From Escherichia coli (GTDB taxonomy: Bacteria; Pseudomonadota; Gammaproteobacteria; Enterobacterales; Enterobacteriaceae), in assembly GCF_046105845.1 (NCBI RefSeq), contig NZ_CP151004.1: DNA of 64,000 bases, one strand, 5' to 3'. Within the stretch, counting starts at the first letter, position 1. Each line of letters begins with the position of its first letter. The notes under the pieces were generated by a model. That model was not told the origin of the DNA and made no database searches. It worked only from the letters and a program-made list of their open reading frames with translations. Position numbers and translations under genes: made by a program. This document shows positions 12,108 to 46,441 of this stretch, one piece after another.

Positions 12108-12334
12108 CGACCAAAAACCTCTTTGCGTCACATTTTTACAACAATTATGGCAGAGAAGATTAATGCCATTGGAATGAAGAGAGTAACGAATGATTAAACT
12201 GGCTAAACCGAATGACGAAAAATTCTGGAAAACAGCACGCAATTTCGTCAGGTGATTATTTTCGTCCCTAAGGAAACCACATAGGATGCTCACGGGTGCC
12301 TGAGACTTTCTGTTTTCAGGCTAACCGGGAATCA

Positions 12335-12381
12335 GAAAGACGAAGGCCCCGACCGATATTTCTATCAACCGAGGCCAACGA

Positions 12382-12395
<14 letters not shown>
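12335..12395 (-). ncRNA. sokB: Approximate position of SokB antisense RNA (antitoxin of hokB), inferred by locus architecture only
   Basis: hok/sok loci encode Sok antisense to the mok translation-initiation region; boundaries not determinable by eye. Confidence 0.3.
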
Positions 12396-12589
<194 letters not shown>

Positions 12590-13003: not shown

Positions 13004-13068
13004 CTTCCGATGTAGGCCCGTATTCTTCGCCTGTACCACGGGTCGGTTTTAGTACAGGCGTTTTCTTT
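13004..13068 (+). ncRNA. rydC: RydC small regulatory RNA (Hfq-dependent)
   Basis: cttccgatgtaggcccgtattcttcgcctgtaccacgggtcggttttagtacaggcgttttctt matches remembered RydC sequence nearly base-for-base; located between ydcA and cybB as in K-12. Confidence 0.85.
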
Positions 13069-33510: not shown

Positions 33511-33538
33511 ATGCACTGGATAAGGATTATCCAATTCT

Positions 33539-33648
33539 AAAAAAAAGCCCGGACGACTGTTCGGGCTTGTCTTTTTATATGTTGGAAAATCAGTGCCAAT
33601 GCAATGGCCCAACAGAAAATAAAATCTGTGACAATAAAGGCATATAAC
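33539..33648 (-). ncRNA. micC: MicC small RNA (Hfq-dependent repressor of ompC/ompD)
   Basis: Reverse complement GTTATATGCCTTTATTGTCACAGATTTTATTTTCTGTTGGGCCATTGCATTGGCACTGATTTTCCAACATATAAAAAGACAAGCCCGAACAGTCGTCCGGGCTTTTTTTT matches remembered MicC including terminator; divergent from ompN as in K-12. Confidence 0.9.
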
Positions 33649-33875
33649 CCGCGCAGAATAACGTATAGCAAATTAAAAGTATAATTTTTATTTTGTATGT
33701 ATTATCTTCGATACATTCACCAGACTTATTATCATTTCAGAGGAATTATTTGATTAAGGTTTTACTTAAGGCGTAACAAATGATATTTATCGGCTAACTG
33801 TACTTCTCCTTTAGGATGTTTTCACTCCCCGAAATGGGGATAAAAGGCAAATAAAATAACTAAAGGATTTATTCA

Positions 33876-34994
33876 ATGAAAAGCAAAGTACTGGCACTTT
33901 TAATTCCCGCCCTGCTCGCCGCAGGTGCTGCACATGCAGCCGAAGTTTATAATAAAGACGGCAACAAATTAGATCTGTATGGCAAAGTTGATGGCCTACA
34001 TTATTTTTCTGATAATACCAATAGTGATGGTGATCAAACTTATGTGCGTTTTGGTTTTAAGGGTGAAACGCAAATCACGGATCAACTGGTTGGGTATGGC
34101 CAGTGGGAATATAACGTGCAGGCTAATGGCTCTGAAGGTGATAAAGGTGATTCCTGGACTCGTCTTGCTTTTGCCGGTCTGAAATTTGGTGACCTGGGTT
34201 CATTCGACTATGGTCGTAATTATGGCGTAATGTACGACATCGAAGGCTGGACCGATATGCTACCGGAATTCGGTGGTGACTCTTATACCAAAGCCGATAA
34301 CTATATGACCGGTCGAGCCAATGGCGTAGCAACCTATCGTAATACTGATTTCTTCGGTCTAGTTGATGGTCTGAATTTTGCGTTACAGTACCAGGGCGCG
34401 AATGAAAACCAGGTCACCCATGAGCAAGAAGGTACCGCAAACGGTGGTGATCGAAACATTAAGAACGCCAATGGAGACGGTTTTGGCATCTCCACTACCT
34501 ACGACTTAGGTATGGGCATGAGTTTTGGTGCCGCCTATACCAGCTCCGATCGCACTAACCAGCAGGCTGAATTCTCTACCGCAAAAGGCGATAAGGCTGA
34601 CGCCTGGACTGCCGGGGCAAAATACGATGCTAACAATATCTACCTGGCGACCATGTATTCTGAAACGCGTAACATGACACCTTACGGTGATTCAACAAAT
34701 ACGATTGCCAACAAAACCCAGAACTTTGAAGTTACTGCGCAGTATCAGTTCGATTTTGGGCTGCGTCCGGCAGTCTCTTTCCTGATGTCTAAAGGCAAGG
34801 ATTTGGTCGGTACCGACGGTGATAAAGATCTGGTTAAATACGCCGATGTTGGCGCGACTTACTATTTCAACAAAAATATGTCCACCTACGTTGACTATAA
34901 AATCAACCTGTTGGATGAAGATGACAGCTTCTACGCTGCCAACGGCATCTCTACCGATGATATTGTCGCTTTAGGTCTGGTTTATCAGTTCTAA
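33876..34994 (+). CDS. ompN: Outer membrane porin OmpN (general-diffusion porin, OmpC/F family)
   Basis: 372-aa ORF with signal peptide and C-terminal LGLVYQF porin motif; at K-12 ompN position. Confidence 0.85.
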
Positions 34995-35002
34995 ATCCTC
35001 CT

Positions 35003-35027
35003 GCCCGCTGTTATGGCGGGCTTTTTC
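35003..35027 (+). terminator. Rho-independent terminator after ompN (cccgc-tgttatg-gcggg + T5)
   Basis: GC stem followed by CTTTTTC. Confidence 0.7.
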
Positions 35028-35053
35028 TGCTTATTCTTCCTCCTTTGATCTAA

Positions 35054-35569
<516 letters not shown>

Positions 35570-35576
35570 CACTAAC

Positions 35577-35601
35577 GCCCGCACATTGCTGCGGGCTTTT
35601 T
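35577..35601 (+). terminator. Rho-independent terminator after uspF (gcccgca-cattgc-tgcgggc + T5)
   Basis: Stem-loop followed by TTTTT. Confidence 0.7.
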
Positions 35602-35744
35602 GATTCATTTCGCAAATGTGCTGACATTTTCCCCTCTAATCCGTACCATACACGCCACAGTTTTTATATCAGATTTCTTATGCTGGGCGTTCCGGCATGA
35701 CGCATACTCTTCTGATGCCATATAACGAATTGAGTCGCTTTTAA

Positions 35745-36680
35745 ATGTCGCAAAATCAAGAAATTAGTAAGAAAGAACAATACAACCTGAACAAATTACA
35801 AAAACGTCTGCGTCGTAACGTGGGCGAAGCCATTGCTGACTTCAATATGATTGAAGAAGGCGATCGCATCATGGTTTGCCTCTCCGGGGGTAAAGACAGC
35901 TATACCATGCTGGAAATTCTGCGCAATTTGCAGCAAAGCGCGCCAATCAATTTTTCGCTGGTGGCTGTTAACCTCGATCAAAAGCAACCGGGCTTCCCGG
36001 AACACGTTCTGCCCGAGTATCTTGAAAAGCTGGGCGTTGAGTACAAGATTGTTGAAGAGAACACTTACGGTATCGTGAAAGAGAAGATTCCGGAGGGCAA
36101 AACCACTTGCTCACTGTGTTCTCGTCTTCGTCGCGGAATTCTTTACCGTACCGCAACGGAACTGGGAGCGACGAAGATCGCGCTGGGTCACCATCGTGAC
36201 GATATCCTGCAAACGTTGTTCTTAAATATGTTCTACGGTGGCAAGATGAAAGGTATGCCTCCGAAATTGATGAGCGATGATGGCAAACATATCGTGATTC
36301 GTCCGCTGGCCTACTGCCGCGAGAAAGATATTCAGCGCTTTGCCGATGCAAAAGCGTTCCCGATTATTCCGTGCAACCTGTGCGGTTCACAGCCTAACCT
36401 GCAACGTCAGGTGATTGCTGACATGTTGCGTGACTGGGATAAACGTTATCCGGGGCGTATCGAGACGATGTTCAGCGCGATGCAGAATGTGGTGCCGTCG
36501 CATCTGTGCGATACCAACCTGTTCGATTTCAAAGGCATTACCCACGGTTCTGAAGTGGTTAACGGGGGTGATCTGGCGTTTGATCGCGAAGAGATCCCTC
36601 TACAACCGGCGGGTTGGCAGCCTGAAGAAGATGAAAATCAGTTGGATGAGTTACGACTGAATGTGGTTGAAGTGAAATAA
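35745..36680 (+). CDS. ttcA: tRNA 2-thiocytidine(32) synthetase TtcA, full length
   Basis: 311-aa ORF with PP-loop SGGKDS and CxxC motifs (CSLC, CNLCGSQ). Confidence 0.95.
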
Positions 36681-38442: not shown

Positions 38443-38564
38443 AAAAAAAAGCCGACTCATCAAAGTCGGCGTCGTACGAATCAATTGTGCTATGCAGTAA
38501 TTCAAAAAAGGAAGTAAGACAATATGGAGCGCAACGCCCATCGCTTGACGTTGCATTCACCTGC
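38443..38564 (-). ncRNA. fnrS: FnrS small RNA (FNR-activated, Hfq-dependent)
   Basis: Reverse complement begins GCAGGTGAATGCAACGTCAAGCGATGGGCGTTGCGCTCCATATTGTCTTACTTCC and ends in GC hairpin + T8, matching remembered FnrS; between zntB and dbpA. Confidence 0.9.
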
Positions 38565-41714: not shown

Positions 41715-41908
41715 GTAACCTCCTATGCACCTTCACACGTCGTGATTCAGACGGGTTAATTGTTCATACTTACTGCATCGTTCCCTTCACAGATTGAAAC
41801 AATACTCTACTTCATACCTGTGAGTATCTGCGCAGGCGGGGCATTTTATACTAGCCTGTTAGCAGTATCGAACAGTTTAGCCCGAGTTTAATTCAGCACA
41901 GGCTCCGA

Positions 41909-43423
41909 TCAGGATGATTTATTCATAGCAGGAACCAACAAAAATGCGATAAATAACAGACCACTGATTAGCAGAAAGGTATCCGAAAATGCCATAGTTT
42001 GCGCCTCCCTCAGCATCAATTGACTCAATAATTTGGTTGAAGCCAGTATTTCCGATGTCTGGTCACTTCCACTGCGATTAAAAAACAAAGCACTTCTGGA
42101 AATGAAGTCATTCACCGTATGGGGAACAGAAACCATTTTTTCACTCATTCTCGAAAAATGAAAATTAGTTCGATTATTGAGAATAGAGCCACACAGGGCA
42201 ATACCAATCGCGCCCCCAAGATTACGTGTTAAATTAAATACACCAGAGGCTAACTTCAGCCGTTCTTTTGGAATTCCCCCCAGCGTTAATGTTACGATGG
42301 GGGCCATCGCAAACTGCTGCGAAATCCCTCTAATTGCCTGTGGAAACAGTAACTCCTGCCATCCCCATTCGTGGGTTATAGGGGTAAAAAGATACATTGA
42401 AAACACAAATCCACCCAGCCCCGCCATCAACAGCCATCGCAGATTTATTTTTTTACTTAACCAGAAGTAAAAGGGAACAGAAAATAACTGGAAAATACCT
42501 GTTGTGCAAACGGCAAAACCTATCTCTTCGGCATTTAATCCGCGAACCTGTCCCAAAAACACAGGTATTAAATATACAGTAGAGAATATCCCAACCCCTC
42601 CAGAAAAAGAAAAAAAACATCCCAGCGTGAAATTTTTATCCTTAAAAGCATGAAGATCCATTATCGGATTGGATATTGTAAGTGTACGCGCAGCAAATAA
42701 AATAAAACTCACCAATGCCAGAACTGATGTCAGCAAAATAGTATTATCATCCAGCCATCCCCAGCGCGCTCCTTCTTCAAGGGTATATTCCAGACATCCC
42801 AGTGTCATGGCCAACAGGATAATACTCGGATAATCAGCAACTTTCAGTAAAGAGAGATCAGGTTTATCAAAATTAACCAGAAAAGGAATACTCAAAACTA
42901 AATATATGCCAGGTAATATATTGATATAAAATAGCCATCGCCAGTCGAGGTTATCAGTGATCCAGCCCCCCAGAGTTGGCCCTAGCGTCGGTGACAGTGA
43001 GGCCAGCGCACTGACTACCGCAGCAGCCAACCCCAACTCTTTACCCTGGTAATAAATAAACGCCGTCGTGAAAACTAAAGGGATCATGGATGCGCCAGCC
43101 GCTCCCTGTAAAGCACGAAACAAAATCATGATCTGAATATTCCATGCAAGTCCACACGCGATACTCATTAAAGTAAATATTCCCGCGGATAGAGTAAAAA
43201 GCCAACGAGTGGAAAATACCCGTGACAGCCACCCAGAGAGCGGAATAACAATAATCTCAGCAATTAAATAGCTGGTCTGAAGCCAGGCCATTTCGTCTTT
43301 ACCTGCGGACAGACCACCACCTATTTCATTTAGGGATGACGATACAATTTGAATATCAAGCTGAGCAATAAATAATCCCATACACATACTGGCGAAAGCA
43401 ATATGTTTACGCATAGACATCAT
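41909..43423 (-). CDS. MFS drug/H+ antiporter, DHA2 (14-TMS, EmrB/QacA-like) family
   Basis: 504-aa highly hydrophobic ORF with MFS signatures; 4-bp overlap with upstream MFP gene; AT-rich relative to flanks; no counterpart at this position in K-12 (memory). Confidence 0.85.
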   Translation of the reverse strand: MMSMRKHIAFASMCMGLFIAQLDIQIVSSSLNEIGGGLSAGKDEMAWLQTSYLIAEIIVIPLSGWLSRVFSTRWLFTLSAGIFTLMSIACGLAWNIQIMILFRALQGAAGASMIPLVFTTAFIYYQGKELGLAAAVVSALASLSPTLGPTLGGWITDNLDWRWLFYINILPGIYLVLSIPFLVNFDKPDLSLLKVADYPSIILLAMTLGCLEYTLEEGARWGWLDDNTILLTSVLALVSFILFAARTLTISNPIMDLHAFKDKNFTLGCFFSFSGGVGIFSTVYLIPVFLGQVRGLNAEEIGFAVCTTGIFQLFSVPFYFWLSKKINLRWLLMAGLGGFVFSMYLFTPITHEWGWQELLFPQAIRGISQQFAMAPIVTLTLGGIPKERLKLASGVFNLTRNLGGAIGIALCGSILNNRTNFHFSRMSEKMVSVPHTVNDFISRSALFFNRSGSDQTSEILASTKLLSQLMLREAQTMAFSDTFLLISGLLFIAFLLVPAMNKSS

Positions 43424-44451
43424 CTCTCATCAACACTGACGGTGACGGACAGTCCCGGGCGAAGAAGTTGCTTTAATTCCTTTGCGTCGTCAAATGCAAT
43501 CCGTACCGGGACACGCTGAACAATTTTGGTGAAATTGCCAGTGGCATTTTCTATCGGAATCAAGCTGAAACTGGCTCCTGTCGCTGGGGAAAGGCTTTCA
43601 ATGTGACCGTGAAACACTTCCCCTTTGAGAATATCAGCACGGATCTCAGCCTTCATTCCTGGCTTCATTCCCGCTATTTGGTTTTCTTTATAATTTGCAT
43701 CAACCCACAACTCACTGACTGGTACTAGTGAAACTAACGATGTGCCGCCTTCCACCCAACTGCCTGTATGGGCGCTGCGGTTTGCGACAATGCCATCAAT
43801 CGGCGCACGAACAAGGGTATATTCCAGATCCAGTAGTGCCTGAGTCAAAGCGGCCTGAACTTCTTCGATACTCGCACGTGCGTTTTCTTCCTGAGCAGAT
43901 AAAACTGCCAGCCGTTGCTTCTCCACCATGAAATCGTTCGCGGCTTTGCGCTCCTTTGCTGCGACCTGCTGGTAGTCAAACCTGGCGTTATCAATAATTT
44001 GTTGCGATATTGCCGCTGATTGTGCGAGTTTTTCATAACGTTCAGTATCTCGCAGGCGCTTTTGCTCCTCATGTTTTACTGCCTGCCATGTTTCACTGGC
44101 ACTTTGAATTATCGACTGCTGCATCGCAATAGTGGCTTGAATGCTTTCGAGATTGGCTTTGCTACTTTTTATTTTTGCCTCAAGCCTGGCGACATTTGCA
44201 CGATAATCCCGATCATCGAGACGCAGGATAATATCGCCTTTTTTTACGCTCTGATTATCGCGCACCTCTATAGCAGAAATATAACCAGAAACTTTACTTG
44301 CCACCGTGGTGATATTACCACCAATGTAAGCATCATCCGTCGTCTGTATAAATCTTCCTTTACTTACCCACCAGATAAAAAAGACAACGCCAGTCAAAAG
44401 AATACCGATCGCTACCACCCCAATAAGCTGTTTTTTAGAAATTATCATCAC
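43420..44451 (-). CDS. HlyD/EmrA-family membrane fusion protein (periplasmic adaptor)
   Basis: 343-aa ORF with N-terminal TM anchor, long coiled-coil segment and beta-barrel/lipoyl regions typical of EmrA-like MFPs. Confidence 0.85.
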   Translation of the reverse strand: MMIISKKQLIGVVAIGILLTGVVFFIWWVSKGRFIQTTDDAYIGGNITTVASKVSGYISAIEVRDNQSVKKGDIILRLDDRDYRANVARLEAKIKSSKANLESIQATIAMQQSIIQSASETWQAVKHEEQKRLRDTERYEKLAQSAAISQQIIDNARFDYQQVAAKERKAANDFMVEKQRLAVLSAQEENARASIEEVQAALTQALLDLEYTLVRAPIDGIVANRSAHTGSWVEGGTSLVSLVPVSELWVDANYKENQIAGMKPGMKAEIRADILKGEVFHGHIESLSPATGASFSLIPIENATGNFTKIVQRVPVRIAFDDAKELKQLLRPGLSVTVSVDER

Positions 44452-44544
44452 TCTTTACACCGTATATATCCGGAAACTTGCATTCGTCATATTTAAAATT
44501 TAACATGGCTTATTTGATGGTTTCTGACAAAATACCTACTGTAA

Positions 44545-45360
44545 ATGACAATCACACTGCAACCCAAAGCATCACCAGGGCATCACATTATCGGACTGGA
44601 TTCGGAACATCTGAATGGAGGCACAGTTCCCTGGCATAAACATCTCTATGCCCAGTTGCTTTACCCGGCTGAAGGAGTCGTTCGTGTATGGGCTGGAGAA
44701 AGCGTCTGGTTAGTGCATGCCAGCAGCGCGCTTTGGCTGCCCCCACAAATGCCGCATAAGTTTGTTGCGACAGGCAACGTACTTTTAAAAACCGTACTGG
44801 TTTCAGAAGCGGAAAGTGAAACGCTGGGAAAAGTTTGCTTCATGACGGGTATTTCACCCCTGTTAAGAGAATTACTAATTGCAATTAACCAACTTCCACC
44901 GTCGCAAAGTACCACAGATAAACAACAGTTACGTTTTTCAGCCCTCGAGACACTGATACTTCAGGAAATAAAAATGGGGGTGAAAATGTCACTTGAACTC
45001 CCTTGGCCAAATGATGAGCGGCTACAGCAGCTTTGTGAGAATTTGCTAAACAACCAAGGGTATCTGCCAACACTGGATAATCTAGCGGATAAAATTAACG
45101 TCAGTAGCCGTACACTCATGCGCTTATTTGTTAAAGAGACGGGATTAACATTTCGCCACTGGGTTCAGCAAATGCACGTTATTTCTGCAGTGACGCTTCT
45201 TGATGATGGATATTCGTTGACCAAAATTGCCCATCGTCTGGGCTATGCCTCAGCTGAATCGTTCGGCAATATGTTTAAGCGTCGAACGGGCTACTCGCCC
45301 GGTAAATTTACTCGTCGATTAACGATGCATGATTATGCAATCACAAGACAAATGATTTAA
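44545..45360 (+). CDS. AraC/XylS-family transcriptional regulator with N-terminal cupin-like sensor domain
   Basis: 271-aa ORF; C-terminal HTH pair (…SRTLMRLFVKETGLTFRHWVQQMHV… LGYASAESFGNMFKRRTGYSPGKF); divergent from the MFP-MFS operon with 93-bp intergenic. Confidence 0.8.
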   Translation: MTITLQPKASPGHHIIGLDSEHLNGGTVPWHKHLYAQLLYPAEGVVRVWAGESVWLVHASSALWLPPQMPHKFVATGNVLLKTVLVSEAESETLGKVCFMTGISPLLRELLIAINQLPPSQSTTDKQQLRFSALETLILQEIKMGVKMSLELPWPNDERLQQLCENLLNNQGYLPTLDNLADKINVSSRTLMRLFVKETGLTFRHWVQQMHVISAVTLLDDGYSLTKIAHRLGYASAESFGNMFKRRTGYSPGKFTRRLTMHDYAITRQMI

Positions 45361-45430
45361 CTTATATTTTCGTGAAATCTGTCACTGAAGAAAATTGGCA
45401 ACGGATGGGTAAAACCGTTATAACACTGTC

Positions 45431-45524
45431 ACCGGTCACCAGGACCCCAGGCCGGATTTAAGACGAGGATGCACTGCTGTGTGTACTGTAGAGTCTGGCG
45501 GATGTCGACAGACTCTATTTTTTT
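45431..45524 (+). ncRNA. mcaS: McaS (IsrA) small RNA
   Basis: ...ggccggatttaagacgaggatgcactgctgtgtgtactgtagagtctggcggatgtcgacagactctattttttt matches remembered McaS 3' two-thirds and terminator; convergent with abgR as in K-12. Confidence 0.8.
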
Positions 45525-45532
45525 ATGCAGTT

Positions 45533-46441
45533 TTAACTTTGCAGATAGCCGCATTCTCGCCGAAATTGCGTGATTAATGACGCGGTCAGTGGTGTCTGGC
45601 GACTATCACGCCGCTGAATCAAATAATAGGTCGCTTTCGGTAAAATTTCGCTAACCGGCAACATCACCAGCCCCTGTCCGTGCAAGGGATCGCAGCCCAT
45701 TTCTTCAGGTAGTATGCTGAGAAAATCGCTTTTTGCCACCAGACTGATACAGGCTGAGAACGTCTCGCAGACTACGCCGACCTGTGGCGTTTGCGCCTGA
45801 TCGTCAAGCAATTCACTCAAGTGTTTGTAGTAGCTGCCGTGTGGCGTCGGCATTGTCCAGCTGTAGTCCAGTAACTGTTTGATCGAACGGGCACCAATGG
45901 CGGGATGTCCCGGGCGGCAAAAGATCGCGAATTGCTTTTCCAGTAATTTCTCAAAAGTAAATTCGTGGTCGTAGGGTCCCTGATAATAGGTATTGATGGT
46001 GAAATCCAGTTCCCCCTGGCGCAATTCATTAATCATCGATACCAGTTGCCCTTCCATAATGCGTACTTTTACCTGCGGATGCTGCTGATGAAAACGAGAT
46101 ATGACAGCTGGCATCAGACTGCGGGAAATACTGGCCCCCATGCCGATATTAATTTGCCCTGCCAGTTGCCCTTGTCGTTGGCGAATATCCTCTTGCGCTG
46201 CGCGCAGCTCTTCAAGAATAAGACTGGCGTGCTGATAAAAACTTTCACCGGCATCAGTTAACGTCACGCCTTTACTACGGCGAAAAAAGAGTTGTGCCGC
46301 CAACCCTTCTTCCAGCTCCTGAATAGATTTACTCAGTGCCGGTTGCGACATATTCAACATTCGGCTCGCTCCGCGAATGCTGCCCTGACGAGCCACTTCA
46401 ACAAAAGCCCGAATTTGATGAATTTTTACCTGAAAAGCCAT
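45533..46441 (-). CDS. abgR: LysR-family regulator AbgR
   Basis: 302-aa ORF, LysR HTH (IRGASRMLNMSQPALSKSIQELEEGL); divergent from abgAB-T. Confidence 0.9.
   Translation of the reverse strand: MAFQVKIHQIRAFVEVARQGSIRGASRMLNMSQPALSKSIQELEEGLAAQLFFRRSKGVTLTDAGESFYQHASLILEELRAAQEDIRQRQGQLAGQINIGMGASISRSLMPAVISRFHQQHPQVKVRIMEGQLVSMINELRQGELDFTINTYYQGPYDHEFTFEKLLEKQFAIFCRPGHPAIGARSIKQLLDYSWTMPTPHGSYYKHLSELLDDQAQTPQVGVVCETFSACISLVAKSDFLSILPEEMGCDPLHGQGLVMLPVSEILPKATYYLIQRRDSRQTPLTASLITQFRRECGYLQS

Follow-up and report, generated by a model that had tools for sequence, protein, structure and literature searches.

The 64,000-nucleotide stretch of Escherichia coli DNA analyzed here (the window; contig NZ_CP151004.1, assembly GCF_046105845.1) carries a genuine mcaS gene at positions 45431–45526 on the plus strand. 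Its first stem-loop (SL1) differs from that of K-12 and belongs to a minority but very common family, the second most common natural allele, referred to below as the UTI89 type. The small RNA that it encodes probably functions as K-12 McaS does. The gene is known, the allele is common, and this kind of variation is known, the variability of stem 1 having already been published (van Nues et al., PMC4824073). The comparison is of limited consequence and serves chiefly as a caution that the K-12 sequence does not stand for the species in the 5′ third of McaS. SL1 is different in about one in four sequenced E. coli, among them the UPEC model strain UTI89, and constructs, probes, and CsrA-binding models based on K-12 may transfer inexactly. 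Should the alleles differ in CsrA affinity, they would offer a compact example of how a contact between a small RNA and a protein can rewire the biofilm/motility switch at the strain level.

Identity and Extent of the Gene

The Rfam model for McaS (RF00115; the RNA is also called IsrA and IS061) matches 45431–45526 (+) end to end, covering model positions 1–96 of 96 with a score of 113.5 bits and an E value of 2.5e-20; the gathering threshold of the model is 42 bits. This full-length match bears out the gene call of the first-pass annotation, which had been made from the sequence alone. The matched segment is identical to K-12 mcaS at 86 of 96 positions and to UTI89 mcaS at 95 of 96. The 3′ end of the RNA is probably the U-tract ending at 45524, the last U of a seven-U tail and the end coordinate given in the first-pass annotation. 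This agrees with van Nues et al. (PMC4824073), who describe an RNA of 94 nt that ends in seven U residues. The minimum free energy (MFE) fold comprises three stem-loops, the last of which is an intrinsic terminator (nt 58–88, followed by the seven-U tail; 45488..45524, +) that is identical to K-12. In an alignment of 17 orthologues, its helix is 100% paired and contains three covarying pairs. The location of the gene, intergenic, convergent with abgR, and on the smrA side, is as expected of McaS.

Divergence from K-12 Is Concentrated in Stem-Loop 1

The locus was aligned directly with the K-12 MG1655 record. Ten of the 96 nucleotides of mcaS differ, nine of them within nt 6–20 in SL1 and the tenth at nt 36. 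The window reads TCACC at nt 6–10 (CGCAG in K-12), CC at nt 15–16 (GA), C at nt 18 (A), G at nt 20 (T), and A at nt 36 (C), and nt 1–5, 11–14, 21–35, and 37–96 show no difference. The first-pass annotation had suspected, with low confidence, that the 5′ segment accggtcaccaggaccccaggccgga, located at 45431–45456, departs from K-12 while the terminator-proximal two-thirds match it. Both suspicions proved correct, since the alignment gave 86 of 96 identical positions in place of full-length identity, and nt 37–96 are the same in the two genes.

The patch at nt 6–20 (45436..45450, +), in which 9 of 15 nucleotides are unlike K-12, is hypervariable and differs in every Escherichia lineage. Around the locus, 14,275 positions were aligned, giving a background divergence of 1.84% between the window and K-12, and among 14,247 sliding 15-nt windows in these 14.3 kb, SL1 ranks first for divergence; the runner-up cluster is the edge of a K-12 deletion. 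Against that background, the top rank of SL1 places the 5′ divergence beyond chance. The remaining change in the RNA, C36A (45466..45466, +), is also present in UTI89 and converts the Rfam stem-2 pair 36:49 from C-G to A/G.

The relation to UTI89 is closer. UTI89, a uropathogenic E. coli of phylogroup B2, shares nt 1–81 of mcaS with the window, including all SL1 substitutions and A36, and has an AraC-family gene upstream as well. The sole difference in mcaS is G82 in UTI89, which makes a terminator pair U-G where the window has U-A.

Two Families of Stem-Loop 1 in E. coli

The frequency of the alleles was determined in 5,426 complete E. coli genomes by running nt 1–40 of every allele through megablast on its own. 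Because megablast requires a 28-nt exact word, the alleles cannot cross-hit one another. mcaS was found in 5,365 of the genomes. The window/UTI89 type occurs in 1,449 genomes within one mismatch (1,331 exact), the exact K-12 type in 2,387, the K-12 type with A18C in 363, and the K-12 type with U27C in 1,139. The K-12 SL1 family thus amounts to approximately 3,889 genomes (about 73%), and the window/UTI89 family to 1,449 (about 27%). Four 40-nt alleles cover 5,338 of the 5,365 mcaS-bearing genomes with zero intermediates between the two families, and on this coverage E. coli contains two deep SL1 families. The complete 96-nt sequence of the window is found exactly in 150 complete E. coli genomes.

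The corresponding 40-mers from the GTDB species representatives E69 and SCPM-O-B-8794 gave zero matches in the RefSeq complete E. coli genomes. A local donor for either SL1 version, as expected from template switching or gene conversion, was also sought, and the longest matches were 8–9 nt, which is the level of chance. A natural loss of the gene was encountered in strain ETEC1739 (NZ_CP122758.1), in which IS1 stands in place of the first ~53 nt of mcaS and the terminator half is left beside abgR; given this replacement, the strain is a natural mcaS knockout.

Constraint across Orthologues

Orthologues were sought by scanning species-representative genomes for a pattern taken from the conserved 3′ core. 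The scan yielded 13 enterobacterial loci, all 13 with an Rfam-scoring McaS, in E. albertii, E. whittamii, other Escherichia, Citrobacter, Pseudescherichia, Trabulsiella, and one Enterobacteriaceae MAG. In a MAFFT alignment of 17 orthologues from five genera, nt 37–96 are almost invariant and nt 4–36 vary across lineages. Two GGA motifs persist throughout: the one in loop 1 is present in 17/17 orthologues, at nt 12–14 or one position off, and the one at nt 37–39 is unchanged in 17/17. The 3′ arm of stem 1 with G20, AGGCCGGA, is shared by the window and all Escherichia alleles outside the K-12 family, which makes K-12 the outlier at nt 20. Helix 1 is only 65% paired in the 17-sequence alignment, in which the distant genera are out of register; as this register dilutes helix-1 covariation, the structure of SL1 was judged from folds of the individual sequences.

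Stem-Loop 1 Architecture and CsrA Sites

In both alleles, SL1 folds into the same MFE hairpin (−8.9 kcal/mol for the window, −8.3 kcal/mol for K-12), with a 6-bp stem (nt 2–7 with 20–25) and a 12-nt loop (nt 8–19) that together correspond to Rfam helix 1 (45432..45455, +). Pair 7:20 is changed on both sides, from G-U in K-12 to C-G in the window, a compensatory change, and pair 6:21 is changed from C-G to U-G. A short hairpin with GGA in its loop, which is the element recognized by CsrA, is also the form of the CsrA-sponge hairpins of the CsrB/CsrC type. Unlike McaS, with four GGA motifs of which two are functional, CsrB contains 22, and McaS is in addition an Hfq-dependent base-pairing small RNA, according to PMC10729762.

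A count of GGA motifs gave four in the same places in both alleles (nt 12, 24, 37, and 70). The motif in the middle of loop 1 (nt 12–14; 45442..45444, +) corresponds to the 5′-most CsrA site and that at nt 37–39 (45467..45469, +) to the second, which overlaps the csgD-binding region; these assignments follow K-12 data in PMC10729762, which describes the two as the functional CsrA sites of McaS and reports that mutating the loop-1 site weakens csgD repression. The other two motifs, at the base of stem 1 (nt 24–26; 45454..45456, +) and in the loop of stem-loop 3 (nt 70–72; 45500–45502, +), are identical to K-12. The window SL1 retains the AGGA, its place in the middle of the loop, and the lengths of stem (6 bp) and loop (12 nt). 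The loop-1 GGA has a mean predicted unpaired probability of 0.79 in the window and 0.86 in K-12. The only changes in the surroundings of the CsrA sites are the flanks of the first GGA and nt 36, which precedes the second; for GGA-37, the unpaired probability is predicted to rise from 0.23 in K-12 to 0.45 in the window with C36A.

From the retained hairpin, the AGGA, and the invariant 3′ two-thirds, we infer that the window allele most likely works as K-12 McaS. SL1 would then serve as a scaffold, with a short 5′ hairpin and an apical AGGA for CsrA as its only conserved requirements, and the nucleotides around the AGGA and at the top of the stem would be free to vary. The 3′ two-thirds are kept in full, and with them the stretch that pairs with csgD, the second of the CsrA sites, the loop of stem 3 used for flhDC, and the terminator. 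An RNA of this kind would be transcribed in a CRP-dependent manner, repress csgD and activate flhDC through Hfq-assisted pairing, and titrate CsrA via two GGA sites. The identity of the gene, its differences from K-12, its frequency, and the conservation of its structure and motifs are observations, and it is functional equivalence, on this basis most likely, that they suggest. It is important to note that relaxed constraint alone explains neither the 9 differences in 15 nucleotides against a background of 1.84% nor the existence of two discrete families, and that the two-family pattern is compatible as well with long-standing balanced alleles or with selection acting on the loop.

GGA flanks affect CsrA affinity in other RNAs, and the window allele may change CsrA binding quantitatively. 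An alternative model would accordingly assign the SL1 dimorphism to functional tuning, in which the GGA flanks (CCAGGACCCC versus AGAGGAGACA) and C36A change CsrA affinity or CsrA-dependent csgD repression. Such tuning is possible but unlikely, and the same holds for its proposed consequence, that lineages of the UTI89 type set the curli/PGA/motility switch unlike lineages of the K-12 type. Several observations point in its direction: SL1 is a divergence hotspot far above background, the two deep families lack intermediates, the GGA flanks are completely different between the alleles, C36A both breaks a stem-2 pair and raises the predicted accessibility of GGA-37, and the altered loop holds a validated CsrA site which, when mutated, leaves csgD less strongly repressed (PMC10729762). 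However, the critical GGA with its preceding A, the hairpin, and the loop size are common to both alleles, and each Escherichia lineage has yet another flank, which resembles drift rather than two optimized states. A stronger form of the argument is more doubtful still, namely that two ancient, discrete SL1 versions (differing at ~60% of 15 nt, where background divergence is below 2%) are maintained through different CsrA affinities, with biofilm and motility thresholds set by lineage, such as ExPEC-rich versus commensal/STEC.

Predicted Target Pairing Is Largely Shared between the Alleles

The first-pass annotation had further proposed that the 5′ differences could alter a target-pairing or CsrA-binding region. 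The proposal is mostly unsupported: the hairpin of the loop-1 CsrA site is indeed changed, yet its AGGA, stem, and loop are retained, and the complement of csgD found here (nt 41–55) lies in the part identical to K-12. This pairing core, GCACUGCUGUGUGUA (45471..45485, +), forms the strongest predicted local hybrid, which is the same for both alleles. Predicted pairing with the csgD leader near −98 amounts to −27.6 kcal/mol in a 14-nt window for both, and the extended csgD duplex in windowed scans to −34.5 kcal/mol for the window and K-12 alleles alike. These values were computed with the K-12 csgD leader, which 88% of genomes match at 99% identity or better. Full-length RNAduplex predictions of McaS with the csgD and flhD leaders produced meaningless structures that spanned the whole molecule and were discarded in favor of the windowed scans. 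PMC4824073 places csgD pairing in stem 2 and attributes the activation of flhDC to the stem-3 loop; nt 58–96, which include that loop, are the same in the window as in K-12.

A further model would view SL1 as a lineage-specific base-pairing module, in which the C-rich loop pairs with G-rich mRNA, for example the flhD leader at −65 to −42, and confers altered or extra targets. The best hybrid between SL1 and this G-rich stretch is indeed stronger for the window (−24.7 kcal/mol) than for K-12 (−20.4 kcal/mol). The apparent gain was nonetheless rejected, as 19 of 200 composition-matched shuffles were equally good. In addition, the site is part of a structured hairpin, the pairing regions described in the literature are elsewhere, and the csgD and flhD leaders across E. 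coli show background-level variation with zero dimorphism matching the SL1 families. A pairing role for SL1 is therefore quite improbable.

That the difference reflects a sequencing or assembly error, or a mistaken K-12 sequence in the first-pass annotation, which marked its own comparison as uncertain, can be dismissed, because the direct alignment displays the differences and the exact sequence recurs in complete genomes, 150 for the 96 nt and 1,331 for the 5′ 40 nt.

Promoter and Expression

The core promoter blocks are shared with K-12. The promoter region (45371..45424, +), read from the sequence and the K-12 alignment, contains a CRP-like site, CGTGAAATCTGTCACT (45371–45386, +), a −35 element, TTGGCA (45395–45400, +), and a −10 element, TATAAC (45419–45424, +), all identical to K-12. 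Differences from K-12 are confined to the spacer between −35 and −10 (45403, 45404, 45406, and 45409; four in 7 nt) and to position −3 (45428). Transcription of mcaS is CRP-dependent according to PMC3634460. A search of the window with the CRP consensus gave zero enrichment over chance, and the match upstream of mcaS alone is not significant; its identity with the K-12 sequence is the sole ground on which the candidate site was accepted. The mcaS promoter and terminator were both missed by simple sigma-70 and terminator scans of the window, which are uninformative for this gene, because its −10 element has C as the last base and an internal loop interrupts the terminator stem. McaS has been recovered in Hfq pull-downs from UTI89 (PMC4546395), which indicates that an RNA with the UTI89-type 5′ allele is expressed and associated with Hfq.

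Genomic Neighborhood

As in K-12 MG1655, mcaS is convergent with abgR, a gene for a LysR-type regulator (45533..46441, −) identified from the open reading frames and from how the identical locus of strain 06-00048 is annotated; the abgR stop codon comes 7 nt after the end of the mcaS match. The upstream side is different. In K-12 the neighbor is smrA, whereas in the window smrA lies 3.7 kb upstream of mcaS owing to an intervening 3.6-kb island (41725–45324) with an AraC-family regulator and efflux genes. The genes concerned are those for a DHA2-type MFS efflux permease (41909–43423, −), an HlyD-family adaptor (43420–44451, −), and the AraC-family regulator (44545–45360, +). At the island site, K-12 has 111 bp and retains the 3′ end of the AraC gene as a diverged remnant. 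Among the loci examined, the island is present with window-type SL1 and missing with K-12-type SL1; in more distant genera, smrA directly adjoins mcaS. The MFS open reading frame is intact in the window and frameshifted in strain 06-00048, the locus of which is otherwise identical.

The downstream side differs between the window, where abgR is intact, and UTI89, where only a pseudogene remnant of abgR is left and the abg operon has been deleted. The same arrangement, with a short abgR remnant, abgABT gone, and ogt directly next, was seen in UTI89, MS21199, LI60C3, and A22. The window thus has an mcaS 5′ end of the UTI89 type together with a downstream side and a terminator A82 like those of K-12.

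The Rac prophage appears to be missing from the window, to judge from its gene content. The Rac genes intR, xisR, and ralR, which flank ttcA in K-12 and 06-00048, are without counterpart at 33531–36680, and a 372-aa open reading frame (33876–34994), just past MicC, is only ~750 bp from ttcA (35745–36680). Four further small RNA genes in the window gave full-length Rfam matches well above threshold, namely sok, the hok/sok antitoxin (12294–12445), RydC (13004–13067), MicC (33531–33651), and FnrS (38447–38564).
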